Assembly: GCA_963753755.1 (NCBI GenBank)
Contig: CAVWDM010000016.1
Span: 96,381 to 160,380, forward strand
Direction: 5' to 3'
Length of the DNA stretch: 64,000 nucleotides
Source: an uncultured Gammaproteobacteria bacterium
GTDB lineage: Bacteria > Pseudomonadota > Gammaproteobacteria > UBA9214
Part shown: positions 17,066 to 56,135 of the stretch, piece after piece
Layout: each line of letters opens with the position of its first letter
How positions within the stretch are numbered: the stretch's first letter is position 1
Position numbers and translations under genes: made by a program
Notes under the pieces: generated by a model
Seen by the model: only the letters and a program-made list of their open reading frames with translations
Databases searched by the model: none
Told to the model about the DNA's origin: nothing

Positions 17066-17214
17066 GATAATCTCCCTTGAATCGGTACTTTGTGCTATTT
17101 TTTTTAAAACATAGTTAACACTGCAAATGCTAGCAGGATGTACCCTTTCAGAGCATGTGACCAATTGTCGCACCCTGATGAGGACGGCTCGGTGACAGTG
17201 GATATGACGATACG

Positions 17215-18192
17215 ATGATGACGACAGCGCAGCAGAGCATTGCCCGTCAACGTGATGCGCTGGGTATTTTCCTGCAAATGCCATTGACGCAACTCGCAAC
17301 GGTCTGCGCACGCGTCTGGCCCGATCGCGGGGCGCTGGAAGTGGCATTGCGAGCCGGTCTCGAGACCTTGCCTTACTGCGACCATTTATTCATCATGAAT
17401 CTGCAGGGTGTGCAGATAACGGCGCAGATCGGTGCCGGTGGGGATGATACCCGCTACATCGGCCTGGATCGGTCACAGCGACCGTATATGAAGGATGTGC
17501 TGACAACGTCTGATTTTGTACTCACCGAAGCCTATATCAGCGAACACAAGAAGCGTCCCAGCATCACAGCGATGCTTAAGGTGAAGCAGGAAGGTATCCC
17601 TGCCGGCTATTTGAGTGCACATTTCGACCTGCGCGATCTGCCATTGACGGCGCCCCTTTACGAGGAATCAACGGTCTGGCGGCAGATGAAAGGGGATCCA
17701 TCGATACGTGGCACACTCTTTCTCCAGCAACGTTTTGAAAGCGTACTCGACCAGCACATTGAGACCGTCATTGCCGTGATCGAGGAATTGATTGTCGATC
17801 ACGGTGTCTTCCATTGCGAAATCCATTTTTCCAGCAATCGCGCTACCATGTGGAGCCAGACTGACCCGTTCCGCTACCATATACTGGCTATCGATGAACT
17901 GGTTGATCCAGACATTTGCCTGACATTTACGCGCAGTACGTATCCGGAATCAGCGGTGATACCTGCCACAAACATCCGCCACTTGCTGGAATCGTTTCGT
18001 GACCTGCGCTTTGCTGACGAGACGATTTACCTGCGCACTGCTTCACTGAATGTCTACAACGGACTGGTGGGGCTGACGTTCTCCTGCGATGGTTCTCACA
18101 GCATCTTCGCAGACGAATTCCTCGACAAAGGGCTTGAGTTCTGGGTTGGCCGCGCAGCAGCGGGAATAACGACTGTACCCGGTGCGTCTTGA
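17215..18192 (+). CDS. Hypothetical cytoplasmic protein, possibly with a PAS/Cache-like fold, sitting immediately upstream of the Anbu module.
   Basis: Clean 325-aa ORF with no TM or signal peptide. No family recognised. Confidence 0.5.
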   Translation: MMTTAQQSIARQRDALGIFLQMPLTQLATVCARVWPDRGALEVALRAGLETLPYCDHLFIMNLQGVQITAQIGAGGDDTRYIGLDRSQRPYMKDVLTTSDFVLTEAYISEHKKRPSITAMLKVKQEGIPAGYLSAHFDLRDLPLTAPLYEESTVWRQMKGDPSIRGTLFLQQRFESVLDQHIETVIAVIEELIVDHGVFHCEIHFSSNRATMWSQTDPFRYHILAIDELVDPDICLTFTRSTYPESAVIPATNIRHLLESFRDLRFADETIYLRTASLNVYNGLVGLTFSCDGSHSIFADEFLDKGLEFWVGRAAAGITTVPGAS

Positions 18193-18297
18193 ACATCAGA
18201 CGTGACGCAGGCCTGCCATGAGGCGCGCAGCGGGATTCACGATCATCGTCTTGCAACCGTGTGCCTGTCCCCGCCTGCGCACCAAGCAGGTAGTGCA

Positions 18298-19206
18298 ATG
18301 ACTGTCCGCGTGGCCATGCACCACCAGACCGAGTACCGCTTTGACCGGCTGGTGACACTGGGGCCGCATATTCTGCGGCTGCGTCCGGCGCCGCACTGCC
18401 GGACGTCAATCCTGTCCTATTCGCTGAACATTCAGCCTGAGCACTATTTCATCAACTGGCAACAGGATCCCTTCGGTAACTTCCAGGCGCGCGTGGTCTT
18501 CACGGACAGGATGCGGCTGTTGCGCATCGATGTTGACCTGGTTGCTGAAATGGCCGCTATCAACCCATTCGATTTTTTTGTAGAGGAAAGAGCCGAATAC
18601 TGGCCTTTCGAATACGAGGCGAAATTACGGCATGATCTGATGCTCTATCTGGAACGTGAAGATGCCGGACCAGAACTGCGCAACTGGCTGGCGCAGCTGT
18701 CGCATGAGCGCACCAATACCATTGAGTTTCTGGTTGCCCTCAATGGCCGCCTGCAACAGGCTATTCACTACCAGCAGCGCATGGAGCCCGGATACCAGAG
18801 TTGCGAGGAGACGCTGGCAAAGACCTCGGGCTCCTGCCGCGATACAGCGTGGCTGCTGGTGCAGGTTCTGCGCCATCTTGGCATCGCCGCGCGTTTTGTG
18901 TCCGGCTACCTGATCCAGCTGGCGCCGGATACCCCCAGCCGTGACGGGCCGTCCGCTGCGCAACAGGACACCACCGATCTGCACGCCTGGGTGGAAGTTT
19001 ACCTACCCGGTGCCGGCTGGATCGGGCTCGATCCGACCTCGGGGATGTTCGCCGGTGAGGGGCACATCCCGCTATTCTGTACCCCCGATGCCGGCAGTGG
19101 CGCGCCGGTCAGTGGTAGCGGCGATGTATGTGAAACAGGGCTTTATTATCACAATCGCGTTACCCGCATCCGCGAGGGTGCGCATGGCAGCAAACCCGGT
19201 AGTTAA
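18298..19206 (+). CDS. Transglutaminase-like cysteine protease-fold protein with a Bact_transglu_N-type N-terminus.
   Basis: Start at MTVRVAMHHQTEYRFD. Predicted catalytic Cys in GSCRDTAWL, His in DLHAWVEVY and Asp in GLDPTSG. Confidence 0.85.
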   Translation: MTVRVAMHHQTEYRFDRLVTLGPHILRLRPAPHCRTSILSYSLNIQPEHYFINWQQDPFGNFQARVVFTDRMRLLRIDVDLVAEMAAINPFDFFVEERAEYWPFEYEAKLRHDLMLYLEREDAGPELRNWLAQLSHERTNTIEFLVALNGRLQQAIHYQQRMEPGYQSCEETLAKTSGSCRDTAWLLVQVLRHLGIAARFVSGYLIQLAPDTPSRDGPSAAQQDTTDLHAWVEVYLPGAGWIGLDPTSGMFAGEGHIPLFCTPDAGSGAPVSGSGDVCETGLYYHNRVTRIREGAHGSKPGS

Positions 19207-19354
19207 TACCTGCGATGAAGGGGGTTTTGTCCAGATTTACAACGCTTTCCCCGTCAAGAACTTAGCGGATCGCTAAAACATGTGTTGACGGCGACTGTCC
19301 ACACTTCCTACCATACAGACAGCTTGCGGCGCTCGCCGCGCGAGGTTGTTGAAT

Positions 19355-20116
19355 ATGACGTATTGTGTTGCAGTTAGAGTTGATGAAGGCTTGGTGTTTG
19401 TCTCGGATTCGCGCACCAATGCCGGTATCGACCGTTTAAGTACCTATAGCAAAATGTTCACATTCGGACGTGATGGTGAACGTTCGTTTGTGGTACTCAC
19501 GGCCGGTAATCTGGCCACCACGCAGTCCGTCATTTCCCAGATCAAGCGCGATATCAAGCAAAAGAATGTCCCCAATCTGATGACGGTCGAGAACATGACC
19601 GAAGCCGCCGAGTACGTCGGACAGTTGAGCGCATCCCAGCAGCAGAAGCACAGTACAGCGACGGCCGGAGGCGGCTTTGATGCCAGTGCCAGCTTTATAC
19701 TCGGTGGCCAGATCAGCGGCGGTTCACATCGAGTGTTCATGATCTATCCGCAAGGCAATTTCATAACGGCAACTGCAGAGAATCCCTACCAGCAGATCGG
19801 TGAGATCAAATATGGCAAACCGGTCCTGGATCGCATCATCATGCGCGACACCAGTCTCGAGGAAGCTGCGCTCGCGGCTCTGGTTTCGATGGATTCCACG
19901 ATGCGCTCCAATGCGACCGTGGGACCACCACTCGACGTGCTGATTTATGCGAAAGACAGTTTAAGCCTGAATCGTCATTTCATATTGCAGGCTGACGACC
20001 CCTACCTGCTCGAGATCAAGGCGGCCTGGGACGAGAAGCTCAAGGAAGCTTTTGCGGAACTCAGACGAGTTAACTGGAACGAGCCGACGTCCGTGTCAGT
20101 CGCCGACGAAGATTAA
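19355..20116 (+). CDS. Anbu, a proteasome-type Ntn-hydrolase homologue.
   Basis: Begins MTYCVAVRVDEGLVFVSDSRTNAG, so Thr2 is the predicted N-terminal nucleophile. About 250 aa, the size typical of Anbu. Confidence 0.85.
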   Translation: MTYCVAVRVDEGLVFVSDSRTNAGIDRLSTYSKMFTFGRDGERSFVVLTAGNLATTQSVISQIKRDIKQKNVPNLMTVENMTEAAEYVGQLSASQQQKHSTATAGGGFDASASFILGGQISGGSHRVFMIYPQGNFITATAENPYQQIGEIKYGKPVLDRIIMRDTSLEEAALAALVSMDSTMRSNATVGPPLDVLIYAKDSLSLNRHFILQADDPYLLEIKAAWDEKLKEAFAELRRVNWNEPTSVSVADED

Positions 20117-20326
20117 CCCGATGATTGAATTAATATTACTGTAGAAACGGCGTCACCTGCAGGGATGTAGGTGAGGGGCGTGAGCAGGACGCGGAAGTTT
20201 CTCGCCGCGCTTCGCGCCGGTGACGGTGCTCCTGCAGGGCTGAGCCAGAATCGCGGTATCGGTCATTATATTAATAAATACAGTAATTTACCACATACAG
20301 GAAACGTCTACTTGATCGCGGCGCTG

Positions 20327-21271
20327 TTACACCGCTTCCTGCAGATCGAGTGAGAACCAGGTAGCGGAAATCTGCTGGTGCAGGTTGCCGAATTCAAACT
20401 GCAGTTGGTCGATGAAGTCGTGCAGCCCCTCGGCGTGGAGTTTTTTCGTATCGGCTTCCGCCACCAGGCGCTGCAGACGCAACACCGCGCGCAGTGGTTC
20501 CTCGTTATGCGGCAAACTTTTCTCAAAGCAGGAGGCGATCTCGCCAAGCGTGTGCGCCACCGCACGTGGAAAAAGCATGTCCTTTAGCAGAAACGCCAGA
20601 ACCTGGTCTGGCTGGACCCGACGGCGGACGTACTGACGGTACATCTGGTGTGCGCTCAGCGAACGCAATACATAGGTCCAGAGACGATTTTCCAGGCGCT
20701 CCAGTTCCACACCGGGTGCGATCAGCGTTGTCGAGCCGACATCGATCATGCGCGTGGTCATGTCGGCACGTTCCAGATTGCGTCCCACGCGCACGAACTG
20801 GTAGGCCGGGCCATGGCTCATGGTGCCGGCCAGCAGCCCGGTGACCTGCTGGCAGCGCATCACGATTTCTGACAGAAACTCGTAGCGGTCCTTGGGGATT
20901 GTTTTTCCAGCGAGTTTTTTCCTTGCGAACAGGTACAGTTCATTGACGTGTTCCCAGCCCTCGCTGGGCACCAGGTCGCGGGTAGTGCGTATGTTTTCCC
21001 GCGCCATGGCCAGACTGGAGATTACCGAGCTGTGGGTGTCGGTGTCACTGAGCATGAACTTGATAACATTGCGTTCACCGGAGGTGCGGTAGTTCCTGTC
21101 GTAGTGATCGTGCGCGCCACTGACATCCACCAGTTGTCGCCAGTTGAGCCCGACCCCGTTGGGGAGGTCCAGCATCATGTTGGAATATACCTTCACCAGC
21201 CGGGCAGTGTTCTCGGCGCGTTCCAGATAGCGTGCCGTCCAGTACAGTCGTTCCGCTACGCGCGATAACAT
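20327..21271 (-). CDS. Alpha-E domain protein.
   Basis: Start at MLSRVAERLYWTARYLERAENTARL, the conserved alpha-E N-terminus. Its ATG abuts the stop of the upstream ATP-grasp gene. Confidence 0.85.
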   Translation of the reverse strand: MLSRVAERLYWTARYLERAENTARLVKVYSNMMLDLPNGVGLNWRQLVDVSGAHDHYDRNYRTSGERNVIKFMLSDTDTHSSVISSLAMARENIRTTRDLVPSEGWEHVNELYLFARKKLAGKTIPKDRYEFLSEIVMRCQQVTGLLAGTMSHGPAYQFVRVGRNLERADMTTRMIDVGSTTLIAPGVELERLENRLWTYVLRSLSAHQMYRQYVRRRVQPDQVLAFLLKDMLFPRAVAHTLGEIASCFEKSLPHNEEPLRAVLRLQRLVAEADTKKLHAEGLHDFIDQLQFEFGNLHQQISATWFSLDLQEAV

Positions 21272-21272
21272 C

Positions 21273-22724
21273 TCACTTGCCTCCCGTGTCCACGATCCAG
21301 GTGTCCTTGCTGCCGCCACCCTGCGAAGAATTTACCACCAGTGAACCCTTGCGCAGAGCCACTCTTGTCAGACCGCCAGCCGTCACGTAGGTACGGTCGG
21401 ACTGCAGGATAAACGGGCGCAGGTCAAGGTGGCGCGGCTCCACGTGCTGTCCGCAGATAGTCGGTGCGGTCGACAGGCTCAGGGTTGGCTGGGCGATGTA
21501 ATTGCGCGGATTGCGCTTGATGAGGTTGACGAACTTGCCGCGCTCCACGGTGGTTGCGTGCGGCCCCACCAGCATGCCGTAACCGCCCGATTCGTTGGCC
21601 GGCTTGACCACCAGCTTGTCGAGATTGGCAAGCACGTATTCGCGTTGCTCGCGGTCTTCGCAGCGCCATGACGGCACATTGGGAATGATCGGGTCCTGGT
21701 CCAGATAATACTTGATGATTGCAGGCACGTAGGTATAGATGACCTTGTCATCCGCGACGCCGGCGCCGGGGGCATTGGCAAGCGCCACGTTGCCGGCGCG
21801 CCAGGCGCGTAATAGACCGGGCACACCCAGCACCGAGTCTTCACGGAAGGCTTCCGGGTCGAGGAATTCATCGTTCACCCGCCGGTAGATGACATCAACG
21901 CGCTGTAGCCCGCCGATGGTTTTCATGTGGACACAGTCATCGTTGCTGACTACCAGGTCGCCGCCCTCCACCAGTTCAGCCCCCATCTGCTGCGCCAGGT
22001 AGGCGTGTTCAAAATAAGCCGAGTTATAGATGCCAGGCGTCATGACCACGATCTCGGGATAGTCCAGCGGTCGCGGCGACAGTGAGGCCAGCATATCGAA
22101 CAGGTGCGAGGGATAGTCATCAACCGGCAGGATACGGTGTTTGCGGAACAGTTCCGGGAACACGCGCTTGGTGATGCTGCGGTTCTCTATCATGTAGGAA
22201 ACGCCGGAGGGTACGCGCAGGTTGTCTTCGAGGACATAGAAGGTGCCGTCGCTGTCGCGGACCAGGTCTGACCCGCAGATATGTGCCCACACATTAAATC
22301 GCGGGCTGGCACCGACGCACTGCGGCAGGAAGCTTTTCGAACCGCTGATCAGTTTCCGCGGTAAGATGCCGTCGTGGAGAATCTTCTGGTCATTGTAGAG
22401 GTCATGGATGAACATATTGAGTGCGGTCATGCGCTGCTGCAGACCTTCCTCGATACGTGACCATTCCTTTAGCGGAACGATACGCGGGATAATGTCAAAC
22501 GGCCAGGTGCGGTCGATGTTGGTGCCTTCGCTGTAGACCGTAAAGGTCACGCCCATTTCCGCGATGGCCAGGTCGGCTGCATGCTGACGACGCCCCAGCT
22601 GCTTGGCACTGAGCCTTTGCAGGTAGCTTGCAATGGCATGCGCGGCACGGCGCGGATTACCGGGCGAACTGATCATCTCGTCATAGAATTCGCCCGGATC
22701 ATAGCTCGTCCACTCAATTTGCAT
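21273..22724 (-). CDS. Circularly permuted type-2 ATP-grasp protein (putative amidoligase).
   Basis: About 480 aa, starting MQIEWTSYDPGEFYDEMISSPGNPRRAAHAIASYLQRL, which is characteristic of the CP_ATPgrasp_2 family. Confidence 0.85.
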   Translation of the reverse strand: MQIEWTSYDPGEFYDEMISSPGNPRRAAHAIASYLQRLSAKQLGRRQHAADLAIAEMGVTFTVYSEGTNIDRTWPFDIIPRIVPLKEWSRIEEGLQQRMTALNMFIHDLYNDQKILHDGILPRKLISGSKSFLPQCVGASPRFNVWAHICGSDLVRDSDGTFYVLEDNLRVPSGVSYMIENRSITKRVFPELFRKHRILPVDDYPSHLFDMLASLSPRPLDYPEIVVMTPGIYNSAYFEHAYLAQQMGAELVEGGDLVVSNDDCVHMKTIGGLQRVDVIYRRVNDEFLDPEAFREDSVLGVPGLLRAWRAGNVALANAPGAGVADDKVIYTYVPAIIKYYLDQDPIIPNVPSWRCEDREQREYVLANLDKLVVKPANESGGYGMLVGPHATTVERGKFVNLIKRNPRNYIAQPTLSLSTAPTICGQHVEPRHLDLRPFILQSDRTYVTAGGLTRVALRKGSLVVNSSQGGGSKDTWIVDTGGK

Positions 22725-22786: not shown

Positions 22787-24265
22787 TCAGTAGCGAGCGG
22801 CGCGCATATGGTCGAGTCGACGGACAAATTCACCCATTATGATACGGTAAAGTTCATCACCGAGGTAGGCATCCTCCACGCCGCTGTCGATGGACGGATT
22901 GTCATTGACCTCGATAACAACAGCCCGCTGATCGTTCGATTTTATATCAACACCAAACAAACCGTCTCCGATCAGGCGCGCTGCACGGGTCGCTATTTTG
23001 CTGACTTCACGCGGCGCATGCTGGATGCCGACGGTTTCCGAGTTGCCGGCACGGTGCGTGCTGGCAGAATGGTTATAGATTTGCCAGTGCCCCCGTGCCA
23101 TATGATATTTACAGGCATAAATGGGACGGTTATTGAGAATGCCGATACGCCAGTCATAATCCGTCGGCATGAATTCCTGCAATAGCACGATTGCCGAACG
23201 CCTGAACATCTTCTCGACACGTTGCTCGAGTTCGGCACGGTTTTCTGCCTTCTCCACACCGATGGAGAAGGAGCCGTCCGGAATTTTCAGGATCACAGGG
23301 AAGCCCGGTTCCTTTTCGAGCTGCTCATAGTCAACGGGCTGGCCACGCAGCAACAGCTGTGTAACGGGGCGCGGAATATTGTGGGTATCCAGAAGTTCAT
23401 TAAGAAATACCTTGTTCGAGCAGCGCAGGATGGCATCAGGTGAATCGATAACGGTCAGTCCTTCATTCTCCGCACGTTTAGCAAACCGGTAGGTGTGATG
23501 GTTTACCGCGGTGGTTTCGCGGATAAACAGGGCATCGTACTCGGCCAGCCGGCCAAAGTCGTCCGGGGTGATCAGGTCCACGTCAAGTCCCAGTTCGCCA
23601 CCGGCGCGAATGAACTTGTTCATTGCGGTGCGGCTGCTTGGTGGCAGGGCTTCCTGTGGATTATGCAGGATGGCCAGGTCATAGCGGTAACGGCGCCGCG
23701 AGCGGGGCCGGCGCCAGACGCTTTTGCAGAAGGCATCCAGGCTGTCGCCAAACAGGGTTTGTTCCGCCTCGTCGAGTTCCTGCAATTTACCAAAGTCTAC
23801 CTTCACGATCTTCCAGGCCGGACTCCCGGTCAGTTTTACACGCAGAATGGGGGCGCTGTAGCGTTCGAAGAGGGTGCGGGCAAACGGGGCCAGCGTGGTT
23901 ATGGCACATTTGCCAAACACGATTAACAGCTCCAGTGTATCCAGGTCCGTCTGGTCCAGCTTGCGCAGGTAGGATTCGACCGCACGTTCCAGCTCGTTGT
24001 CGAACAGCCGGTAGTGATCGAAATTATGCAGGTCATTGATGGTGTTGACGGATGGAATGACCTTCCCACCCCTGGCTTCGCCGAGCAGTGAACAGTAATA
24101 GCCGTTACCCAGGTACTCGAGGCCGCTGCACAGGTTGATGATGTAGCCGGGATTTTGACTTGCCTGGGTCTGCTGCAGGTAAGCCTCTACAGTCATGATC
24201 TTTTCGCTGGGGTAGTACGGCGACCAGGCAGCAGCATCATCGACGATGATGCGGAATTGTTTCAT
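22787..24265 (-). CDS. RimK-like ATP-grasp ligase with an N-terminal domain of about 250 aa (RLAN-like).
   Basis: The C-terminal half aligns by eye with RimK (VILKIPDGSFSIGVEKAENRAELEQRVEKMFRRSAIVLLQEFMPTDYDWRIGILNNRPIYACKYHMARGHWQ...VIEVNDNPSIDSGVED). The N-terminal half is unrelated to RimK. Confidence 0.8.
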   Translation of the reverse strand: MKQFRIIVDDAAAWSPYYPSEKIMTVEAYLQQTQASQNPGYIINLCSGLEYLGNGYYCSLLGEARGGKVIPSVNTINDLHNFDHYRLFDNELERAVESYLRKLDQTDLDTLELLIVFGKCAITTLAPFARTLFERYSAPILRVKLTGSPAWKIVKVDFGKLQELDEAEQTLFGDSLDAFCKSVWRRPRSRRRYRYDLAILHNPQEALPPSSRTAMNKFIRAGGELGLDVDLITPDDFGRLAEYDALFIRETTAVNHHTYRFAKRAENEGLTVIDSPDAILRCSNKVFLNELLDTHNIPRPVTQLLLRGQPVDYEQLEKEPGFPVILKIPDGSFSIGVEKAENRAELEQRVEKMFRRSAIVLLQEFMPTDYDWRIGILNNRPIYACKYHMARGHWQIYNHSASTHRAGNSETVGIQHAPREVSKIATRAARLIGDGLFGVDIKSNDQRAVVIEVNDNPSIDSGVEDAYLGDELYRIIMGEFVRRLDHMRAARY

Positions 24266-24474
24266 GGGTGTTAGAGCGCCTCCAAGCTACATGCCACCAC
24301 GTGTGACGGCGCACAATGTCGCACCAATAATAGCGGCTGGCAAGTAATTTCAGTGTACCGTCAGCGGCGGTTGGCTTGTCGGCTCACGCTGGCTGGCAGC
24401 ATTGAAAAAAGCTTCCATGAAGCAATGCACTGCCATCATTATACCGGGATGGACCTGACTATTGCAGATGACTC

Positions 24475-25599
24475 ATGAACCGTGTCGCTACCCTGGACGA
24501 TATCGAGGCCCTGCTCGCGATAGAGCAGCAGAGTTTCGCTGCGGACCGCATCAGCAGGCGGCAGTTTCGCCACATGTTGACCCGGGCGAACGCTGCGGTG
24601 CTGGTGGAAGAGTGTGCGGGTCGAATCGTCGGCGATGTCGTGGTGCTGTTCTCGCGTGCCACGTCCGTCGCGCGCCTCTATTCACTGGCGGTTGATCCGG
24701 GTGCGCGTGGCCAGGGGGTGGCGAAAAACCTGATACAGGCTGCAGAGCAGGCTGCCTGGTCCAGGCGCCGTGCCTACATGCGTCTCGAGGTGCGCAAGGA
24801 CAACAGCGCGGCGGTTTCCCTGTATCAGCGTCACGGCTACCGGCGCTTTGGCGAGTGGGTGGATTACTATGACGACCATGCCGATGCCTGGCGCTTTGAA
24901 AAATCCCTGTCACCTGAACTGCGCCCGTCCTTGCGCAATGTCGCGTGGTACGAACAGAGCCTGGATTTTACCTGTGGTCCTGCTGCGCTGATGATGGCCA
25001 TGGCCACACTGAACCCGGCACTGCAGCCCGATCGCACGCTGGAATTGCGCCTCTGGCGCGAGGCAACCACGGTGTTCATGACCTCCGGTCATGGTGGTTG
25101 TGGTCCCTATGGCCTGGCGCTGGCCGCCGCGCGGCGCGATTACAGGGTGCGGGTATATGTCAGTGACAAGGGGGTACACCTGGTGGATTCCGTGCGCAGT
25201 GAAGACAAGAAGGAGGTCATGCGCCTGGTACAGGAGGACATGAGGCAGCAGTTAAGTACGCTCGGTGTGCCGGTTTATCACCGGGCCATGTCCATCGACA
25301 GAATGGAGGCCAGTTTCAATGGCGGGGCCATTCCGCTGGTACTGATTTCCTCCTGGCAGATCTACGGTGAACGCTTTCCACACTGGGTTGTGGTCACCGG
25401 CTTTGATGCGAACTTTGTTTACGTCAATGACCCCTATGTGGATTACGAGGCAGGGGAGACTGCGCTGGACTCGATCCACATGCCCATCGCGCGCGAACGC
25501 TTTGCGACCATGACGCGTTACGGACGGGTGAAACTGCAGGCGGTGGTCGTGTTGACCGCCCCTGCTGAATTCAACACGGCGACTGCGGGAAAGTCCTGA
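24475..25599 (+). CDS. Fusion of a GNAT N-acetyltransferase and a C39-like (papain-fold) cysteine peptidase.
   Basis: GNAT motifs (RGQGVAKNLI, LYQRHGY). C-terminal LDFTCGPAALMMAMATL and HWVVVTGFD are consistent with a C39-like Cys/His peptidase. Confidence 0.8.
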   Translation: MNRVATLDDIEALLAIEQQSFAADRISRRQFRHMLTRANAAVLVEECAGRIVGDVVVLFSRATSVARLYSLAVDPGARGQGVAKNLIQAAEQAAWSRRRAYMRLEVRKDNSAAVSLYQRHGYRRFGEWVDYYDDHADAWRFEKSLSPELRPSLRNVAWYEQSLDFTCGPAALMMAMATLNPALQPDRTLELRLWREATTVFMTSGHGGCGPYGLALAAARRDYRVRVYVSDKGVHLVDSVRSEDKKEVMRLVQEDMRQQLSTLGVPVYHRAMSIDRMEASFNGGAIPLVLISSWQIYGERFPHWVVVTGFDANFVYVNDPYVDYEAGETALDSIHMPIARERFATMTRYGRVKLQAVVVLTAPAEFNTATAGKS

Positions 25600-25620: not shown

Positions 25621-26862
25621 TCAATGGTCGTGGTTGTGGCGGGTCAGCGGCTCATTGGCCCGGATCGAGGCGGCCGACAGTGTTCCTGACTGAGCCGTTA
25701 GCGCCAGGCATGAGACCTTCAATATCCGCCGTGCTGCCAGGATCCAGAACGGGCTGGCAAGCAGTGACAGTGCAATCACCGCAATCGTATACTGGTAGGC
25801 GATCTCGGTGATAATGCCGGCTGTCAGCCCAACGGCAGCCAGGACAAAGGAAAATTCGCCAATCTGGCTGAGCATTGCGCCGGCATAGAAACTTTCCCGC
25901 CATCGATAACCAAGGAAACGCAGGATAATGCCGTTCAGCAAGGTGTTGCCGACCAGTACGCTCAGCACCAGCAATAGCACCTGTACTGCATGCGAGGTAA
26001 TGAACGCGACATCAACCAGCATGCCAACGGAAACAAAAAACAGGGCAACAAAAATTACCCGGAACGGCTCCAGGGAGTGATGCACCCACTGGGTCTCGCG
26101 CGCCGCGGTTACCAGTATCCCGGCTGCAAAAGCACCCAGTGCGGTTGAAAGTTCCGCCATCCCCGTTAACAGGGACAGCCCGAGACAGATCAGCAATGCC
26201 GCGAATACCTGCAGTTCGGGGTCGCTGCGCAATAGCTGCCCGTAGGGAAAATGAAATGCGTCCTGCGAGAGTGCCCATAGCAGCACCGAGACAATGGCGA
26301 TTGATCCGGCGATCTGCAGGCCGAGGTCATTCCAGGCCGGTGTTTCACCACCAAGCAGCCCGATAATGATCAACATGGGGATGACAACCAGGTCCTGCAC
26401 CAGCAGAATGCCGAGGATGTCCTGGCCTTCCTTGATGTTAAGTTCCCCGGAATCACGCAGCAGCTTGATGATAACGGCCGTGCTGCTGAGGCTCGTGACG
26501 AAACCCAGCAGGATGATGCGCTCCAACGGCCAGTCGAACCACAGGCCGATCGGGATGACCAGGGCAACACTCAGAGCAACCTGTACCAGCGTGCCGACTA
26601 CGGCAATGCGCCATCCTGAAAGGAGCTGTCGTGGCGCGACCTCCATGCCGACGAAGAACAGCAGCAAGACAACCCCAAAGTCACCCATTCGGGAAGCAAG
26701 TGCCGTATCTGTCAAAAGGGCAAAGCCGAAAGGGCCGATGGCGACTCCGGCAATCAAATAGCCAATGACCTGGGGTTGTCGCAGCAGTTGTAGTGACAGG
26801 CCGATGAGCAGCACGATGGCGATGATGGCAACCATCGTCGGCAGCAGGGGGTCAATATGCAT
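25621..26862 (-). CDS. Cation:proton antiporter (CPA/Na_H_Exchanger family).
   Basis: About 12 TM segments. Contains AGVAIGPFGF and LLLFFVGMEV. Confidence 0.85.
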   Translation of the reverse strand: MHIDPLLPTMVAIIAIVLLIGLSLQLLRQPQVIGYLIAGVAIGPFGFALLTDTALASRMGDFGVVLLLFFVGMEVAPRQLLSGWRIAVVGTLVQVALSVALVIPIGLWFDWPLERIILLGFVTSLSSTAVIIKLLRDSGELNIKEGQDILGILLVQDLVVIPMLIIIGLLGGETPAWNDLGLQIAGSIAIVSVLLWALSQDAFHFPYGQLLRSDPELQVFAALLICLGLSLLTGMAELSTALGAFAAGILVTAARETQWVHHSLEPFRVIFVALFFVSVGMLVDVAFITSHAVQVLLLVLSVLVGNTLLNGIILRFLGYRWRESFYAGAMLSQIGEFSFVLAAVGLTAGIITEIAYQYTIAVIALSLLASPFWILAARRILKVSCLALTAQSGTLSAASIRANEPLTRHNHDH

Positions 26863-26875
26863 GTAATGACACCCG

Positions 26876-28033
26876 TCAGGTACGGTACAACCAGTTGCGC
26901 AGTAATACCGGGACGAGGAGGGTGGTGATCAGGCTCATGAGTACCAGTGCGACATAAGCCGGTTGTTCGATCACGCCGCGATTCAACGCCAGCAGTGCGA
27001 TCACCATGGCTACCTCGCCACGCGGCGCCATGCCGACACCGATAATCATGCTCTCTCTGGTCGCGATACCGGTGGCGCGTGCGCTCAGGCCGCAGCCAAT
27101 AAATTTGGAAAGGAAGGCAACAACTGACAGTGCCCCGGCAAAGACCAGTGTTTCGGCGCCGAGGAAGCGTAAATCAGCGAGTACTCCAAGCGACACAAAG
27201 AACACCGCGCCAAACGCCGCGCGCACATAGCCTGCGCCGATATGTACGGACTGGCTTTTGTTGACATGGATGCCCTCGAAGACCACGCCGGCAACAAAGG
27301 CGCCGACAATGGCGGAAAGATGCAGGTATTCCGCTACCAGGGCATAGACAAATGCCGTCAGCAACCCGAGGACGAAGACAAACTCCGGTGACCGCACGGC
27401 CAGTTGCGAGGCATCGATCCGGGCAGAGAGCGGCGCGAGCAAGCGCTGTCCCAGCCAGGCGCCCACGCCGATGAACAGAATGGCCTTGATCGCCATCAGT
27501 GCAATCTCGACGGTATCGATGACCCCGCTGCCGAGTTGATCGACCATGGAGAGGGCCAGCAGGGCCAGCACGTCGTCAATCACCGCTGCGCCGATAATCA
27601 GCCTGGCCTCCGGCGACTGCAGTCGGCCCAGTTCTCGTAACGCATCGGCGGTGATGGCAATACTGGTGGCGCTCAGGGCGACGCCAATCAACAATGCGCG
27701 GTCGTTATCGAAACCAAACCACAGCGCGACCAGATAGCCAGTGAACCAAGGCACAATGATGCCCGCCACGGCAATGATAAAGGGGCGCATACTGGCCAGC
27801 TCGCGCGCGCGGAATTCCAGGCCGACGACGAACAGCAGCACAATGGCACCGAGGTGGGCAATATTGGCGACAAATGTTGTGTACGTAATCAAGCCGAAGA
27901 CGCTTGGCCCGACAATCAGGCCGGCCAGGATCTGTCCGACCACGGCAGGCTGGCGGACCAGTCCGGAGATCAGGTGCCCGGCCAGTGCAACTGCCAGTAA
28001 CAGGCTCATCTGGAATTCAATGGATTCGTGCAT
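26876..28033 (-). CDS. Cation:proton antiporter (CPA family), a tandem paralogue.
   Basis: Contains ILAGLIVGPSVFGL and LLFVVGLEF. Confidence 0.85.
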   Translation of the reverse strand: MHESIEFQMSLLLAVALAGHLISGLVRQPAVVGQILAGLIVGPSVFGLITYTTFVANIAHLGAIVLLFVVGLEFRARELASMRPFIIAVAGIIVPWFTGYLVALWFGFDNDRALLIGVALSATSIAITADALRELGRLQSPEARLIIGAAVIDDVLALLALSMVDQLGSGVIDTVEIALMAIKAILFIGVGAWLGQRLLAPLSARIDASQLAVRSPEFVFVLGLLTAFVYALVAEYLHLSAIVGAFVAGVVFEGIHVNKSQSVHIGAGYVRAAFGAVFFVSLGVLADLRFLGAETLVFAGALSVVAFLSKFIGCGLSARATGIATRESMIIGVGMAPRGEVAMVIALLALNRGVIEQPAYVALVLMSLITTLLVPVLLRNWLYRT

Positions 28034-28200
28034 TGACTGCTTGTCCCAGGGTAGTGATAGGCACCGGCCTCAGATTATAAATACCGGAAAAAGGGCGTTG
28101 CATACCCAAATAGCGACGGGAGTAGCTGTGCCCGGCGTGCTGTTGGGCTCAGGCATCATGGGTTACGGCACACAGGCAACACCATGGTATCTGCTTATAG

Positions 28201-29187
28201 TCATAACCATTTTTTTCTGTAGAAGATGATCAGCAGGCCGACCACGATGGCAAGCATCAGGCCGAGCAGGTTGTAATAGCCGGACGGTGAATGCAGTTCC
28301 GGCATGTTTTCAAAATTCATACCATAGATACCGGCGAGGAAACTCAACGGTACGAAAATAGCCATCACCACGGTCAGTACTTTCATGATCTGGTTGAGTC
28401 GATGCGAGGCAACCGATATATAGCCGTCAGCCAGGTCCGAGGCCATTTCGTAATAGAGACTGGCAAGGCTGCTGGCGCGTTCCTGTTGCTCATAGACATC
28501 GACGATTTGGTGATCATGTTGGTCTGCGATGGCGGGGTAGGTGCCGGATTTTAGTGCAGCGAAGACCTGCTGGTGGTAGAGAAATACCCGTCTGAATTTC
28601 TTCAGTTCGGTTTTGTAATTGAGTAGTTCTGCGAGTATCGTGTCGTCGGGATGTTCCATGATTTCGCTTTCCAGCGACTCCAGACGAGGTTCCAGTTTGA
28701 GCAGAATGTCGAGATAACGATCCACCAGCCTGCGGCACAGACGCAGCGCCAGTGTTGCCGGTCCGTCAGCTAAAATTTCTGCATTACTTGTTGCCTGATC
28801 GAACAGTGTATCGGTAATGGGTGATACGCCATTGCGCCGGGTCACCAGGAATCGATCGCCGATAAAGAGTGCCAGTTGAATGGTGGAAAAATGCAGGCTC
28901 TCGGAGTCGGCACTCAACGGCTTCAGCAGGATGAAGGTGGAAGCATCGAATGCCTCGATCTTGGGCGGATGACGCGATCGCTGCGCATCCTGGATTGCCA
29001 TGGGATGCAGGCCGAAACTGTCCTGCAGAAACCGGGCTTCCGTAGCATCGGGTTCTGCAGAACAATCGAGCCAGATACAGCTGTCCGCATTCTGCCGCCA
29101 GACGGCCACCAGTTCCTGTCCGCCGCTGATGACTTCGTTGCTCGACCTGTTATAAAGAAGTGTCCTGATCATGGCATGTTTCTCCAA
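28201..29187 (-). CDS. corA: CorA magnesium/cobalt transporter.
   Basis: C-terminal two TM segments with the YGMNF (GMN) motif. Confidence 0.9.
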   Translation of the reverse strand: MEKHAMIRTLLYNRSSNEVISGGQELVAVWRQNADSCIWLDCSAEPDATEARFLQDSFGLHPMAIQDAQRSRHPPKIEAFDASTFILLKPLSADSESLHFSTIQLALFIGDRFLVTRRNGVSPITDTLFDQATSNAEILADGPATLALRLCRRLVDRYLDILLKLEPRLESLESEIMEHPDDTILAELLNYKTELKKFRRVFLYHQQVFAALKSGTYPAIADQHDHQIVDVYEQQERASSLASLYYEMASDLADGYISVASHRLNQIMKVLTVVMAIFVPLSFLAGIYGMNFENMPELHSPSGYYNLLGLMLAIVVGLLIIFYRKKWL

Positions 29188-29280
29188 TTAATCGCCGGAT
29201 TGTCACATATAATTCCCTGCAAACGCGAGCGCCGGTCTCTATTGTCATTGTAGTGGTCCGCGGACCACCTCGCTTTGTTG

Positions 29281-30666
29281 CTATACCAGCAAATATGGCA
29301 TGAATAACGTCGCCAGGCTCAGTACCAGGAAGAAGCCGGCCATGTCTGTGACGGTGGTGAGCAGGGGACCCGATGCGACTGCGGGATCAACGCCAAAGCG
29401 CTTGAGCAGCAGGGGCACCGTGCCGCCGATGGACACGGCGATCACCGTATTGGCCGCCAGCGCCAGTCCAATCACCAGGCCGAGGTAGGGACTGCCTTTC
29501 CAGAGCCACGCCACGATGCCGATCATAATGCCCAGTACGATACCGTTGATCAGTCCGACACCGACTTCCTTCTTCCACACATGAAAAACATCAACAGGCC
29601 GGGCGAGTCCCAGCGCCAGTTCCCGCATGCTTACACCGACCGCCTGGTTACCGGAACAGCCGCTCATGTCAGAGACCATGGGAAGGAAAACCGCAATGGC
29701 GATGACTGCGGCCAGTGTTTCCTCGTAGGCCGAGATGACGCTGGCCGCGATGATATTCAGAACAATGTTCGAGCTCAACCAGGCCAGCCTGCGTCTGGAG
29801 CGAAACCAGGTGGGCATGGAGCGCAGTTCGTCGCTCATGCGCTGACGTGACAGGCTTTCCTGTTCGGATCGCTTCAGTGCGGCCTCTGCGACCGCGGCCC
29901 GTGAGACGACTCCCAGGGGAATGCCCTGCTCATCGACCACCGGCACGCCGAGGAACGGATGTTCCTCAAGCAGTTCTTCCAGAGCGTCCTGCGTCTCGTC
30001 TGGCATGACAGTCAGTGGTGCAGACATGATCTCTGCAAGGGCAGCTGCACGCCTGCTGGTCAGCAGGCTGCGCAAGGACACGACACCGACCAGTTTGCCG
30101 GTCTTGTCGATGACATACGGGTGCTGCCCGCGGTAACGCTCGAATTCCTCATCACCCTTCGCCAGGCGCGCCAGCACGGCACCGACTGTTTCAGAGGTTT
30201 GGAACGAGAAGATATCACTTTCCATGAGACCGCCGGCGCTGTCTGGCGGATACTCTGCAAGTTTTCGAACACTGGCAGCCTCGTCCGGGTCCATCTCGGA
30301 GAGAATGGCCTCGGCCTCATCCGGCTCCAGTTCAGTGACGATGTCAGCCTGGGTATCGCTCTGGAGCTCTTCCATGATCTTTGCCGCTACCGGTGACTCC
30401 AGACCCTCGATCAGGGAGGCAGCAAGGTTCTCCGGCGCCTCTTCAACCAGTGTGGCGGCCGCTTCCGGTGTAATCAGTGACACCACCCGGTCACGTTCTT
30501 CTGCATGCAGACGCGAGAAATGGCGCAGGGCGTCCTGGGTCGGGATCGATTCCATGATCTCGGTGAGCCGCTCGCCATCGGCATTTTCGAGCGCTTGATC
30601 TATGGCTTTCCTGACGTCCTTGTCTTCAGGGATCAGGTCGTCGGTATTATCAGCTGTATCTTTCAT
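29281..30666 (-). CDS. mgtE: MgtE magnesium transporter.
   Basis: MgtE_N helical domain, a CBS pair, and a TM domain (TVTDMAGFFLVLSLATL). Start trimmed to MKDTADN. Confidence 0.9.
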   Translation of the reverse strand: MKDTADNTDDLIPEDKDVRKAIDQALENADGERLTEIMESIPTQDALRHFSRLHAEERDRVVSLITPEAAATLVEEAPENLAASLIEGLESPVAAKIMEELQSDTQADIVTELEPDEAEAILSEMDPDEAASVRKLAEYPPDSAGGLMESDIFSFQTSETVGAVLARLAKGDEEFERYRGQHPYVIDKTGKLVGVVSLRSLLTSRRAAALAEIMSAPLTVMPDETQDALEELLEEHPFLGVPVVDEQGIPLGVVSRAAVAEAALKRSEQESLSRQRMSDELRSMPTWFRSRRRLAWLSSNIVLNIIAASVISAYEETLAAVIAIAVFLPMVSDMSGCSGNQAVGVSMRELALGLARPVDVFHVWKKEVGVGLINGIVLGIMIGIVAWLWKGSPYLGLVIGLALAANTVIAVSIGGTVPLLLKRFGVDPAVASGPLLTTVTDMAGFFLVLSLATLFMPYLLV

Positions 30667-30875
30667 GCGGTGTTTTTCCCTGTTGAAATATGCTGGTGAC
30701 GAATCGTTTCGTTCAATTGTGTAACGAAGTGATACGATGGAGTTGTGCACGGGATGCCCTTAGGCTTATTAATCCCGGCATTCGCTGGCTTCTTAGTGAT
30801 AGCGAAAAAGTGGATAGTATCAGCGCTGAGGTCGTGTGACACTCTCGTGTATATGCGCTTGACCATGAGAAATCT

Positions 30876-30912
30876 CCCGGACCCCGGACCCTCGACCCTG
30901 GACCCCGGAGCC
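30876..30912. repeat. Degenerate heptamer tandem repeat (CCCGGAC-like, 5 units) in the divergent Mg-transporter intergenic region.
   Basis: Sequence CCCGGACCCCGGACCCTCGACCCTGGACCCCGGAGCC. Confidence 0.6.
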
Positions 30913-30997
30913 AAAGGTCGGGTAAATGTTGAACGCGCCGGGCTGGGCTGTAATCACTACTGCGAGTGTAAATCCAGACCGGGCGGGCACTGGAAAA

Positions 30998-31063
30998 GTC
31001 ACAGTGCTGCACCGCGGTACCCCGGGTGAAATGCGATAAGACTGACATCAGCTGTGACTTTTT
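30998..31063 (+). promoter_or_regulatory. Structured 5' leader hairpin with a U-run, a candidate attenuator, ending 50 nt upstream of the CorC/CNNM gene.
   Basis: Stem AGTCACAG / CTGTGACT enclosing a GC-palindromic loop, followed by TTTTT. Confidence 0.3.
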
Positions 31064-31113
31064 CCTGTCATGCGGCGTCCAACCCTTAACCACACCAGGA
31101 ATAAACGGTTTTC

Positions 31114-32451
31114 ATGCCTTCACTCACTCTCAGTCTCGTTGCCGTAATAGTGTTGCTTGTCGCGAACGCGTTCTTCGTTGCCGCGGAGTTTGCGCTGGTG
31201 AAGGCGCGCGGTTTTCGCCTGGAAACTTACGCTATCGAGGGCAGTTCTGCCGCCAAGCTCACATTGCGAATCCAGCTGAATCTCGAGGCCTACCTGGCCG
31301 CCTGCCAGCTGGGCATCACCATGGCATCACTGGGTCTGGGTTGGGTAGGTGAACCTGCGGTTGCTGCCATTCTCGAACCGTTATTTCACAGCCTCGGTAT
31401 TCCGGAAACGATACTGCACACGGCAGCGTTCATGGCCGGTTTTCTGATTTTCTCGTCACTGCATATTGTTGTCGGCGAGCAGGTCCCCAAGACCTTTGCC
31501 ATACGCCGGGCCGAGCTCGTGTCGGTCTGGGTGGCGTATCCACTGCATATAGCCTATCTGATGGTGTATCCCCTCAACTGGTTGCTGAACCGTGCATCAC
31601 GGTCGATCCTGTCGATGTTCAATGTCGAGGAGGTATCCCACGCCGATGTGCTGAGTGGTGAGGAGCTGAAAGGACTGGTGGCTACCTCACGCGAGCATGG
31701 CGAGATTGAGCAGAACAAGGCGGATATGTTGCACAATCTATTCGAGTTCGATCAACGGCAAGTGGGTCGCGTGATGATCCCCCAAGGATCGATAAAAATG
31801 CTGGACTTGAGTAGCGATCCGGATCGCAATCTCGAAACAATACGCGACAGTGGCCACTCGCGATTTCCCGTCATCGACTCGGCCGCTGATGACAAGATTG
31901 CAGGAATCGTGCTTGCGAAGGATCTCTATACCGCGATGCTTTCAGGTAATCCGGAGCCCTGGCGTGACCTGAAGCCGTTTTGCCGTGAGCCACTGCTGGT
32001 GCCGGAAAGTCAGAAGATTGCACGCTTGTTCGATAGCATGCGTAGCAATCGCGCGCATATGACCTTTGTCGTTGATGAGTACGGTGAACTGGCGGGGATC
32101 ATAACCCTGGAAGATCTGCTTGAGGAGATTGTCGGTGAGATCCATGATGAAACCGATCCGGAAGAAGCGGCGTCACCCGTCATCGGCGTTGCCGAAGGAG
32201 AGTGGCTGGCGGATGGCATGACCACATTGACCGATGTGGAACGTGCCATAGGCCTCAAGGTCCCGCCCGAGATGGATGCCAACACCCTTTCAGGATTGTT
32301 TATGCTGCGACTGGCGCGCATGCCGGAGGTAGGCGATGCAATTGATGAAGCCGGATTCCGGCTTGTGGTGCAGTCGTTTGACGATCGTCGTGTCGGCGAG
32401 ATTGCTATCGCGAAGCTGGCGGATGTCGATGCACCGGGGTCGAACGACTAA
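31114..32451 (+). CDS. HlyC/CorC-family (CNNM) Mg2+/Co2+ transporter: DUF21, CBS pair, CorC_HlyC.
   Basis: DUF21 N-terminus (VANAFFVAAEFALVKAR), CBS domains, and the C-terminal transporter-associated domain. Confidence 0.9.
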   Translation: MPSLTLSLVAVIVLLVANAFFVAAEFALVKARGFRLETYAIEGSSAAKLTLRIQLNLEAYLAACQLGITMASLGLGWVGEPAVAAILEPLFHSLGIPETILHTAAFMAGFLIFSSLHIVVGEQVPKTFAIRRAELVSVWVAYPLHIAYLMVYPLNWLLNRASRSILSMFNVEEVSHADVLSGEELKGLVATSREHGEIEQNKADMLHNLFEFDQRQVGRVMIPQGSIKMLDLSSDPDRNLETIRDSGHSRFPVIDSAADDKIAGIVLAKDLYTAMLSGNPEPWRDLKPFCREPLLVPESQKIARLFDSMRSNRAHMTFVVDEYGELAGIITLEDLLEEIVGEIHDETDPEEAASPVIGVAEGEWLADGMTTLTDVERAIGLKVPPEMDANTLSGLFMLRLARMPEVGDAIDEAGFRLVVQSFDDRRVGEIAIAKLADVDAPGSND

Positions 32452-38020: not shown

Positions 38021-38461
38021 TGAACATACCGAGGCAGACTGGTTCTGGCCTGGCAGGCGTTTCGCGAAGGAATATCTGGTTAATTCGTCATTCCGGGCGG
38101 AGCGCAGCGCAGACCCGGAATCCAGTTGTTGCTATTCAATCTGTTACTGGATTATTCGTTGCGCTCACCCTGTGGGCGTTCAACGCGCTACGCGCTTTTC
38201 TCCGCTATGCACCGGAACCACGAATGATGAATTAAACAGACCCACCTTGACAGCTGCAGAATGTAACTCGTTCCTGACGTCCTTATCTCAGGAGTTATGT
38301 CACCCGTGTTATCAGCTGTATCTTCCATGAAAATCATTACCTGTTGATTTTGTGTTCATCTGCCAGATCCATGGCGGAGTTGCATCCCTGCAGAGTATGA
38401 AGCACGTTGTAATCGGGGTTTGTAATAATATATCTTCTTTAGGAAAGTGAATCACTGCCAG

Positions 38462-55297: not shown

Positions 55298-56135
55298 GCG
55301 GATCCCTGTGTGTCAGCGATGTGCCGGTCGCTATCAAGGTGGCCAGTAACTGTCCCGCCGTGACAGCAAACAATTCGCCGACGGTTATAAAGGATTCCAG
55401 GCCGTTGCTGACGGCGCCTGTATGTAAGGATGCTTCCTGGAAGCGCCGCATACTTTTCTGACGGATGATACCCAGCAGAACGTTATTTTCGTCGGTGACA
55501 GGTAATGCATGGTATTCCTGCCAGTACGGGCTGTTGAATACGGTCAGTATCGACTGTACCGGGGACAGACTGATGATGTGTCTGTGCATGATCTCGCTGA
55601 TCCGCGCGGCTGACGGCGCACTGATCATTTCATGCAGCGTCATCACACCGGTTAACTGGCCCGCGGCATTGGCGGCATAGACATAAAATTTCATACCACG
55701 CCGTATCCGCTTGATACGTTTAACTGCCTGTCGAACGGACAGTTCCTCCGGTACGCTTGCCAGCGGCGCTTCCATGAGGTTTCCGGCAGTACCGCGGGGA
55801 TAGGGAAGCAGTCGCCTTATCGAGGCAGCCTGGTCCGGTCGCAACGCTCTCAATAACGACTCGCGTGTATCCTCATCGAGTTGACGTAACAGCATTATCT
55901 GAAGATCTGGAAGCAACAGGCTGAATATCTGGCCTGCCGCCTGTGATTCAATCACACTCAAACAGCTTGCGGCAAACCCCGGCGAGAAATGCTCGATGAC
56001 TGACTTTGCCGTGAGTGGATTAGCAACCCCAAGATATTGCGCGGCTATTTCTGCGGGAAAGTCTTCGAGTACGCGTGCTGCAGCGGCGGGCTGGCTTCTC
56101 AGAAAGGTTGCACCGAGACGGGAATGCGGGTTCAT
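55290..56135 (-). CDS. Stand-alone MgtE N-domain plus CBS-pair protein, with no TM domain.
   Basis: Start trimmed to MNPHSRLGATFL. MgtE_N-like helices and CBS motifs. ATGA overlap with the upstream gene, and an 8-bp overlap with the downstream mgtE. Confidence 0.7.
   Translation of the reverse strand: MNPHSRLGATFLRSQPAAAARVLEDFPAEIAAQYLGVANPLTAKSVIEHFSPGFAASCLSVIESQAAGQIFSLLLPDLQIMLLRQLDEDTRESLLRALRPDQAASIRRLLPYPRGTAGNLMEAPLASVPEELSVRQAVKRIKRIRRGMKFYVYAANAAGQLTGVMTLHEMISAPSAARISEIMHRHIISLSPVQSILTVFNSPYWQEYHALPVTDENNVLLGIIRQKSMRRFQEASLHTGAVSNGLESFITVGELFAVTAGQLLATLIATGTSLTHRDPHG

Follow-up and report, generated by a model that had tools for sequence, protein, structure and literature searches.

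Two divergently transcribed genes of an uncultured gammaproteobacterium, one for a predicted RimK-type ligase and one for an acetyltransferase fused to a papain-fold domain, lie directly beside the genes of the proteasome homologue Anbu. What do the two proteins make, and do they belong to the Anbu pathway? The stretch of DNA that raises this question, hereafter the window, comprises 64,000 nucleotides (GenBank assembly GCA_963753755.1, contig CAVWDM010000016.1, positions 96,381 to 160,380). A sequence-only reading of it had taken the adjacency as the sign of one linked peptide-modification pathway. Our analysis leads to a different answer: the pair is probably an acetyl-capping peptide-ligase module that is independent of Anbu. 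Its parts are listed below.

22787..24265, minus strand: RLAN-RimK gene, 492 amino acids (aa) plus stop, the predicted ATP-dependent amide/peptide ligase of the pair
23717..24265, minus strand: RLAN domain, residues 1-183, apparently a truncated, degenerate ATP-grasp-like module without ATP/Mg residues
23681..23716, minus strand: basic linker W184-RRPRSRRRYR-Y195, 12 residues, predicted disordered
22790..23680, minus strand: complete three-domain RimK/LysX-type ATP-grasp ligase, residues 196-492
24266..24474, no strand: putative divergent control region, 209 bp, its function inferred only
24475..24924, plus strand: GNAT domain, residues 1-150, of predicted N-alpha-acetyltransferase (RimI/Naa10) type
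24925..25599, plus strand: DUF3335/C39-like papain-fold domain (PF11814), residues 151-374 plus stop, with invariant residues
24955-7, 24973-5, 25381-3 and 25429-31, plus strand: predicted catalytic codons of Q161, C167, H303 and D319

Both open reading frames (ORFs) are present and divergent as first described, the 374-aa frame at 24475..25599 on the plus strand facing away from 22787..24265 on the minus strand across 209 bp; the gaps around the pair measure 209, 62 and 21 bp. The names given in the sequence-only reading, RLAN and C39-like, are right, with strong Pfam scores for both. In the 492-aa protein the RLAN model PF14401 covers residues 27-174 (E 5.7e-42, 143-146 bits against a cut-off of 25, 148 of 150 model positions) and the RimK ATP-grasp model PF08443 residues 283-460 (E 3e-13). 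In the 374-aa protein the GNAT match spans residues 19-126 (Acetyltransf_1 at 26-122, E 7.7e-15), DUF3335 (PF11814, 'Peptidase_C39 like') spans residues 157-360 (E 1.6e-85, 286-288 bits), and Peptidase_C39_2 is also above its cut-off (30-32 bits against 24). By this domain check the first protein is RLAN plus a complete RimK/LysX-type ligase, and the second GNAT plus DUF3335.

The NCBI names for the two proteins are 'RimK family protein' and 'GNAT family N-acetyltransferase/peptidase C39 family protein', and both architecture and pairing have an established place in Pfam and NCBI nomenclature. The pair of RLAN-RimK and GNAT-DUF3335 was reportedly predicted computationally by Iyer, Abhiman, Burroughs and Aravind in 2009 (Mol Biosyst 5:1636). 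The earlier description of the fusion, which the sequence-only reading had mentioned, is borne out by a paper that refers to Iyer et al. 2009 and that assigns DUF3335, noted there as fused to GNATs, to the C39/GUCD1 group of the papain-like enzymes (PMC10318531). Compared with this predicted pair (PF14401, PF11814), the window pair shows no essential difference: architectures, pairing and the predicted chemistry of ligase, acetyltransferase and peptidase all agree. It is an ordinary, minimal two-gene member without an M20 or DUF2817 accessory gene. The exact sequence of the window protein had no record in a database look-up, and its closest relatives, at 83-88% identity, come from uncultured Thiogranum-like Gammaproteobacteria.

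Judged by sequence and model, the first of the two proteins (492 aa) is an intact ligase of the RimK/LysX ATP-grasp type, and activity is predicted because the ATP/Mg residues K285, K327, Q363/E364, D440, E452 and N454 show little or no variation in sets of 15 and 56 homologues and align with their counterparts in Pseudomonas RimK. As an intact enzyme of this type, it would activate a carboxylate as acyl-phosphate and join an amino acid to that carboxylate. Its AlphaFold2 (AF2) model has a predicted local distance difference test (pLDDT) value of 82.9. The sequence-only reading had assigned the N-terminal 250 aa or so to an extra domain, a size that needs correction: an ordinary RimK N-domain is present and RLAN comes in addition to it, the extra part amounting to about 183 aa of RLAN plus the 12-residue basic linker, and residues 196-283 being the ligase's own, ordinary pre-ATP-grasp domain.

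The RLAN-RimK protein has homologues in more than 8000 clusters, annotated 'RimK family protein'. By its NCBIfam scores it appears not to be a canonical RimK: TIGR00768 gives 93.9 bits against a cut-off of 143.4 and NF007764 (S6 ligase) 51.3 against 331, and MptN and CofF are also among the matches. Furthermore, an invariant family-specific loop, G-H-W-Q-I-Y-N-H, stands where RimK has GEFR. The window ligase thus differs from the RimK/RimA/RimB system of S6 poly-glutamylation in its scores below the cut-offs, its extra RLAN and its distinct HWQIYNH loop; it is paired with a GNAT instead of RimA/RimB, and relatives with a RimB-like gene have it elsewhere as a separate gene.

The GNAT half of the 374-aa protein appears to be an intact acetyl-CoA-binding enzyme of the N-alpha-acetyltransferase type. 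The acetyl-CoA motif R78-G79-Q80-G81, together with E105 and Y117, is conserved in homologues, and a search of the family profile against the PDB puts Naa10, the bS18-Ala N-acetyltransferase and archaeal N-acetyltransferases on top (E about 1e-13 to 1e-14). The protein fails the test for RimI itself, the best NCBIfam model for the GNAT, TIGR01575 (rimI), scoring 76.0 bits, below the equivalog cut-off of 86.4.

In the DUF3335 half, Q161, C167, H303 and D319 are invariant among 43 fusion proteins from 42 genomes (40-80% identity), among 56 database homologues and in a set of 20 homologues. The conservation check of Cys and His, in the sets of 43 and 56, came out in favour of a catalytic pair, and the CGPAAL...H signature noticed at first sight is real: it reads FTC167GPAAL and PH303WVV, both conserved in homologues. 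A second Cys, C209 in GHGGCGP, is near-invariant in the domain. Gln161 sits six residues before Cys167, and papain likewise has a Gln six residues before its Cys. On these residues the domain is taken to be of papain type with an intact Gln/Cys/His/Asp set. Peptidase C39 proper was tested and failed (PF03412, E 0.063, 13.5 bits against 22). The domain shares with C39 bacteriocin peptidases and with BtrH/CtaG the papain-fold clan, the Cys-His-Asp triad and the preceding Gln. Unlike the bacteriocin peptidases, whose model PF03412 is insignificant here, the window protein is cytoplasmic, lacks an ABC transporter fusion and is fused to a GNAT; by Pfam, no ABC transporter gene adjoins the 374-aa gene in the window either.

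The DUF3335 profile finds only marginal matches in the PDB, the PCAT double-glycine protease at E 0.2 and, around the His, BtrH-N-domain proteins at E 0.013. The latter matches bear on a variant of the acetyl-capping ligase model, in which the C39-like domain would be a transacylase or transpeptidase like BtrH and CtaG and would pass the peptide via a Cys thioester to an acceptor. CtaG, which matches PF11814 and BtrH, has been shown experimentally to be a transacylase (PMC7183216). Against such a role stand the marginality of the PDB matches, the lack of any conserved carrier-protein or acceptor-related gene nearby and the optional nature of the DUF3335 domain, and we consider it quite improbable.

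How constant is the pairing? A scan with one genome per species gave at least 592 loci, and the best 80 of these, at 47-83% identity, were examined; with eight closest relatives (74-88% identity) and one locus from Pseudomonas aeruginosa, they make up 89 loci anchored on the pair, or dyad. The best 80 include a Thiogranum metagenome-assembled genome (MAG), Idiomarina and relatives, Methylophaga, methanotrophs, the Pseudomonas fluorescens group, Hahella, Marinobacterium, Microbulbifer and the Dyella/Frateuria/Dokdonella group. The GNAT gene adjoins the RLAN-RimK gene in 78 of these 80, the ligase lying at a contig edge in the remaining two, and in all eight close relatives, each with the DUF3335 fusion; overall it is adjacent in 86 of the 89 loci. 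Most often the two genes diverge, as they do in the window. The two genes are therefore co-conserved, as the sequence-only reading had expected.

The peptidase half is less constant. DUF3335 is found in 42 of the 80 genome loci and in 50 of all 89, and in about 33 of the 80 the GNAT stands alone, at about 155 aa, with no DUF3335 within 10 kb (three contig-end loci excluded). The earlier picture of a conserved dyad that includes a peptidase is accordingly right in its pairing with the GNAT and needs revision as to the peptidase, which is missing from about 40% of dyads. Since DUF3335 is absent from many dyads, the conserved core is the ligase plus the acetyltransferase, and the peptidase is a frequent optional add-on. 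Peptidase dispensability and the recurrence of cation-transporter, ArgE-like and polyamine neighbours, to which we return below, are modest new points. The pair occurs in hundreds of proteobacterial species and thousands of sequence clusters, in groups such as fluorescent pseudomonads, Idiomarina, methylotrophs, the Dyella/Frateuria group, Azospirillum and Legionella. It is rarely plasmid-borne, matches in a plasmid collection lying mostly on megabase-sized replicons.

An exception to the pairing is the P. aeruginosa homologue (48% identity), which has no GNAT neighbour. It lies at 38432-40021 of NZ_CP133752.1, between a short-chain dehydrogenase/reductase gene and a class I/II aminotransferase gene and near a glutamate/aspartate ABC transporter and ggt, on a 'plasmid' record that bears apparently chromosomal genes. 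Its place in the gene order beside ggt, aatJQMP and pagP probably identifies it as PA1345, a name deduced from that order. A CpxR-box-like motif has been described upstream of PA1345 (PMC12802237), which is only presumed to be the same gene as this homologue.

If the two genes travel together, do they also travel with Anbu? The Anbu-module genes named in the sequence-only reading are indeed present to the left of the dyad, with these Pfam assignments.

18202-19206, plus strand: transglutaminase
19346-20116, plus strand: proteasome-like Anbu
20327-21319, minus strand: Alpha-E
21273-22724, minus strand: CP_ATPgrasp

In the window, RLAN-RimK is followed 62 bp on by CP-ATP-grasp on the same strand with no terminator-like hairpin in the gap, so read-through transcription is possible there. 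These facts favour the view that the dyad and the Anbu module form one linked peptide-modification pathway, as do the predicted peptide-ligase and peptidase chemistry of both modules (PMC5666114) and the recurrence of the neighbourhood in two near relatives, L085 and L090. Synteny in loci anchored on either module does not support it. No Anbu-module homologue lies within 10 kb of the dyad in any of the 84 loci L001-L084, which include Thiogranum-like genomes at 81-84% identity with quite different flanks, and Anbu-module genes stand beside the dyad in only one of the 89 dyad-anchored loci (L085, an 86%-identical relative). There CP-ATP-grasp is 1.9 kb downstream, with an opposite-strand LysR gene and two small ORFs between. 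In the reverse test, with 80 metagenomic loci anchored on relatives of the window CP-ATP-grasp (67-93% identity), the dyad appears once (L090), the modules being about 1.9 kb apart; several of these relatives, with 87-93% identical CP-ATP-grasp and 3-8 kb of upstream flank, lack the dyad. The published Anbu operon has only transglutaminase, ATP-grasp and Alpha-E partners and does not include the dyad genes (PMC5666114). The two systems are thus alike in being adjacent here and in their predicted ligase and peptidase classes of chemistry, and unlike in that their enzyme families are unrelated and not co-conserved. A shared pathway is largely refuted by synteny and would be a long shot. Because the adjacency is confined to a narrow sub-lineage and the published operon lacks the dyad genes, it is regarded as local synteny of that sub-lineage, and the dyad should not be used for interpreting the Anbu system.

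What, then, is the extra domain of the ligase for? The sequence-only reading had called the N-domain unrelated in fold, and comparison of predicted structures speaks otherwise. RLAN modelled alone (pLDDT 86.6) was searched against the PDB with Foldseek, and ArgX and LysX were found at E 4e-5 with probability 1.00 and template-modelling (TM) scores of 0.50-0.56, as for an ATP-grasp-like domain. An hhalign comparison with the C-terminal half is colinear, placing RLAN 18-162 on 226-383, and not significant (probability 1.4%, P 0.038); sequence-level proof of RLAN as a duplicated ATP-grasp was accordingly discarded, and the pseudo-ATP-grasp assignment therefore comes from predicted-structure comparison only. 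In the non-significant register (P 0.038), 'GYYCSLLGEARGGKVIPS..TINDL' is paired with 'HTYRFAKRAENEGLTVIDS..ILRCSNK', RLAN has none of the nucleotide-binding lysines, and the C-terminal Mg-binding sub-domain is absent. It is fairly well supported by these models that RLAN represents an ATP-grasp-like module, truncated and catalytically dead after the loss of its nucleotide and Mg residues and plausibly derived from an internal duplication, and its role is most likely docking or regulation. The following linker has pLDDT below 50 at residues 183-192 in the AF2 model of the whole protein; its W184 is invariant, and R185 and R194 are nearly so. RLAN was earlier described only as an uncharacterised alpha+beta domain, and its pseudo-ATP-grasp nature is new; the view of it as a dead ATP-grasp gives a concrete handle for experiments.

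With these parts, a mechanism can be proposed. The ligase would link amino acids via acyl-phosphate, possibly iteratively, glutamate being the likeliest by the example of the RimK family, and a short acidic peptide would result. RLAN and the basic linker would hold the growing product or a partner protein, the GNAT would cap the free alpha-amino end with acetyl, and the Cys-peptidase domain would cleave, limit, recycle or transfer the product; a metallo-hydrolase, either ArgE-like M20 or DUF2817, may have a share in turnover in other genomes. By analogy with known systems, our tentative preference, held at somewhat under even chances, is for a product assembled from free amino acids, a small acidic di- or oligopeptide with an N-acetyl cap, which may serve as a cytoplasmic counter-ion or solute. 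We favour a small peptide because no substrate gene is linked to the dyad, because the same enzyme classes make N-acetylaspartylglutamate (NAAG) in animals and N-acetylglutaminylglutamine amide (NAGGN) in bacteria, and because deacylase-type accessory genes and cation or polyamine neighbours fit a metabolite. Near the dyad, the loci examined have no conserved small ORF able to encode a substrate peptide, and the window has no room for one.

The two analogies are instructive in both directions. NAAG metabolism (NAT8L, RIMKLA/RIMKLB, GCPII and aspartoacylase) likewise brings together a GNAT, a RimK-type ligase and a metallo-hydrolase around an N-acetylated dipeptide; the RimK family has members that ligate glutamate to small molecules, RIMKLA/B making NAAG from N-acetyl-aspartate (PMC3872778). 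NAGGN synthesis (Ngg, AsnO, PA3461) also combines the GNAT, ATP-grasp ligase and hydrolase classes: its operon encodes a GNAT plus ATP-grasp enzyme that makes N-acetyl-Gln-Gln and, in addition, a peptidase (PMC8070244). The window pair is not orthologous to the NAGGN enzymes, the Ngg model TIGR03103 reaching 40.3 bits against a cut-off of 569 and in the GNAT region only; by Pfam there is no asnO near the window dyad, and Ngg has its GNAT and ATP-grasp in one polypeptide. Unlike both systems, the window pair has an additional papain-fold domain and RLAN.

Accessory genes add to this picture. An M20 gene stands between GNAT-C39 and RLAN-RimK in six of nine close-relative loci (L082-L085, L087 and L088) and in L090, and its product is above the ArgE equivalog cut-off (TIGR01892, 368 against 298 bits). 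The window and the Thiogranum-like MAGs have no M20 gene in the dyad. M20 as a dedicated peptidase was considered and dropped, since having passed the ArgE cut-off it may be housekeeping. A DUF2817 gene is part of 12 of 84 loci and mostly sits between the ligase and GNAT genes; it shows a weak AstE/AspA-type match, and its sole NCBIfam match is MpaA (E 5.7e-06). The LysX/ArgX-LysW-LysK systems, which hold the closest structural relatives of the ligase, similarly combine a RimK-like ligase with an M20 (ArgE/LysK-type) hydrolase, as the dyads of close relatives do with their ArgE-like M20. The likeness ends there: no LysW-like carrier, kinase, reductase or aminotransferase genes lie near the dyads examined.

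Cation-transport genes are a second kind of neighbour. To the right of the window dyad, two Na+/H+ exchangers, CorA, MgtE and CNNM/CorC stand in a row at 25621-32451. A CorA-like gene lies 16-59 bp downstream of the ligase gene in 14 Pseudomonas loci, a Na+/H+ exchanger lies downstream of it in six Lysobacterales loci, and CorA flanks GNAT-C39 in L084, L085 and L090. The dyad might on this account be a cation-homeostasis device, with N-acetyl-capped glutamate poly-anions buffering or counter-balancing Mg2+, K+ or polyamines; RLAN and the linker would hold the poly-anionic peptides, and the Cys-peptidase and metallo-hydrolases would release charge. If true, this would explain the recurring CorA, MgtE, CorC, Na+/H+ transporter and polyamine neighbours in unrelated lineages, and we rate it as improbable. 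Later in the window (42767-43867 and 53993-56054) there are another Na+/H+ exchanger homologue and two MgtE-like matches, so that the window bears several copies of Mg2+ transporter families.

Polyamine genes are the third kind. Genes for S-adenosylmethionine (AdoMet) decarboxylase, spermidine synthase and ornithine/arginine decarboxylase abut the dyad at 4072-4527 of L087 and 3621-6075 of L088, which represent a 74%-identical lineage. Glutathionylspermidine synthetase/amidase (GspSA) pairs an ATP-grasp ligase with a Cys-His amidase. The dyad could by this parallel run an amine-conjugate cycle, in which a carboxylate would be joined to ornithine, a polyamine or an acetylated derivative, the papain-fold domain would act as amidase and the GNAT would neutralise the amine. 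Besides the polyamine genes, the ArgE-like acetylornithine deacetylase gene inside the dyad of close relatives fits such a cycle, and so do the Mg2+ transporters nearby, Mg2+ and polyamines being interchangeable cations. The polyamine genes were, however, seen in one sub-lineage only, the GNAT is nearer to N-alpha-acetyltransferases than to polyamine acetyltransferases in the same PDB profile search, and the nucleophile of RimK-family ligases is an amino acid rather than a polyamine. We take this cycle to be improbable.

The strongest competitor of the small-peptide product is a modification of protein or peptide ends. In this proposal the ligase would extend one particular cellular protein at its C-terminus by a (poly)glutamate-type tail, in the manner of RimK on S6 and LysX/ArgX on LysW; RLAN would dock the substrate, the GNAT would acetylate the N-terminus of that protein or of a partner, like RimI on S18, and the C39-like domain would process the substrate or trim the tail. 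Much the same prediction accompanies these Pfam families, as cited via PMC10318531. The nearest structural relatives of both ligase and GNAT are all protein-end modifiers; the GNAT profile matches are all protein N-terminal acetyltransferases, including bS18-Ala, at E about 1e-14, with rimI the best NCBIfam match; and a non-catalytic extra domain with a conserved basic linker could bind an acidic tail or rRNA. On the other side, none of the lineages examined has a gene for a candidate substrate near the dyad, about 40% of dyads do without the peptidase domain, and the ArgE-like, DUF2817 and transporter or polyamine neighbours fit metabolite chemistry better. Moreover, the scores stay below the RimK and RimI family cut-offs, and at least some relatives also bear a RimB-like gene, so that a canonical RimK system apart from the dyad is implied for them. 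We therefore see end-modification as unlikely overall, yet as the nearest alternative.

Several observations count against an acetyl-capped small peptide made by an independent module. The closest relatives of the GNAT in the PDB profile search are protein N-terminal acetyltransferases, and for the ligase the nearest solved structures, those of RimK, LysX and ArgX, all belong to enzymes acting on protein C-termini. A macromolecular substrate would suit an extra docking-type domain such as RLAN, and an endopeptidase-type fold, equally well. The arginine of the RimK 'GEFR' motif is replaced by HWQ in the family. The M20 gene is possibly just housekeeping argE, given that it passes the ArgE cut-off, and the window has neither M20 nor DUF2817. 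A cation-transport gene lies within 3 kb in only about 22 of 84 loci and may be coincidental. Finally, no experimental work on the pair was found in the literature, and the probable P. aeruginosa homologue was still a 'hypothetical ATP-binding protein' in 2025. Identification of the product would reveal a new N-acetyl-peptide metabolite of bacteria or else a new way of modifying protein ends.

Conservation extends into the 209-bp spacer between the two genes. In an alignment of the window with L001, L081 and L086, two blocks are conserved: 24305-24344, whose minus-strand reading is CTTGCCAGC..TTGGTGCGACATTG..CGCCGTC and which overlaps a plus-strand promoter-like site in a promoter scan, and TATAAT on the minus strand at 24437-24443. 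These blocks are kept among four relatives with proteins only 81-84% identical, which suggests back-to-back promoters or an operator.

The remaining surroundings of the dyad are variable. Besides the GNAT gene there is no universally conserved neighbour in the loci examined, only lineage-specific ones (aroE-like, Ku, DnaJ-like, DegP and sugar kinase genes). A cluster of pyridoxal-phosphate enzymes common to Idiomarina and Pseudomonas was set aside as a single-linkage artefact at about 30% identity, and neither protein matched the defence models of PADLOC-DB 2.0 at E up to 0.01. A Klebsiella ATP-grasp paper was likewise put aside, as it concerns an unrelated TupA-like enzyme. A RimB-like retropepsin is the usual partner of canonical RimK. 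A gene for such a protein (PF05618) lies 7-9 kb from the dyad in two Thiogranum-like loci (531-980 of L081 and 2631-3095 of L086), and this suggests that these relatives also have a separate classical RimK system.

The Anbu module itself (17215-22724) is split into convergent units, CP-ATP-grasp plus Alpha-E on the minus strand and an ORF without assigned function plus transglutaminase plus Anbu on the plus strand, and this layout is kept in metagenomic relatives at 76-94% identity. The additional ORF (17215-18192, plus strand, or starting from 17347; 281-325 aa) lies directly upstream of the transglutaminase gene, has no Pfam or NCBIfam match and has a homologue in only one of the 80 Anbu-anchored loci (L098, 50% identity). 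Its 5' end overlaps an opposite-strand ORF for a TonB-dependent receptor (14957-17347, minus strand), which borders the module and matches best a copper-receptor model, at 220 bits against a cut-off of 472.

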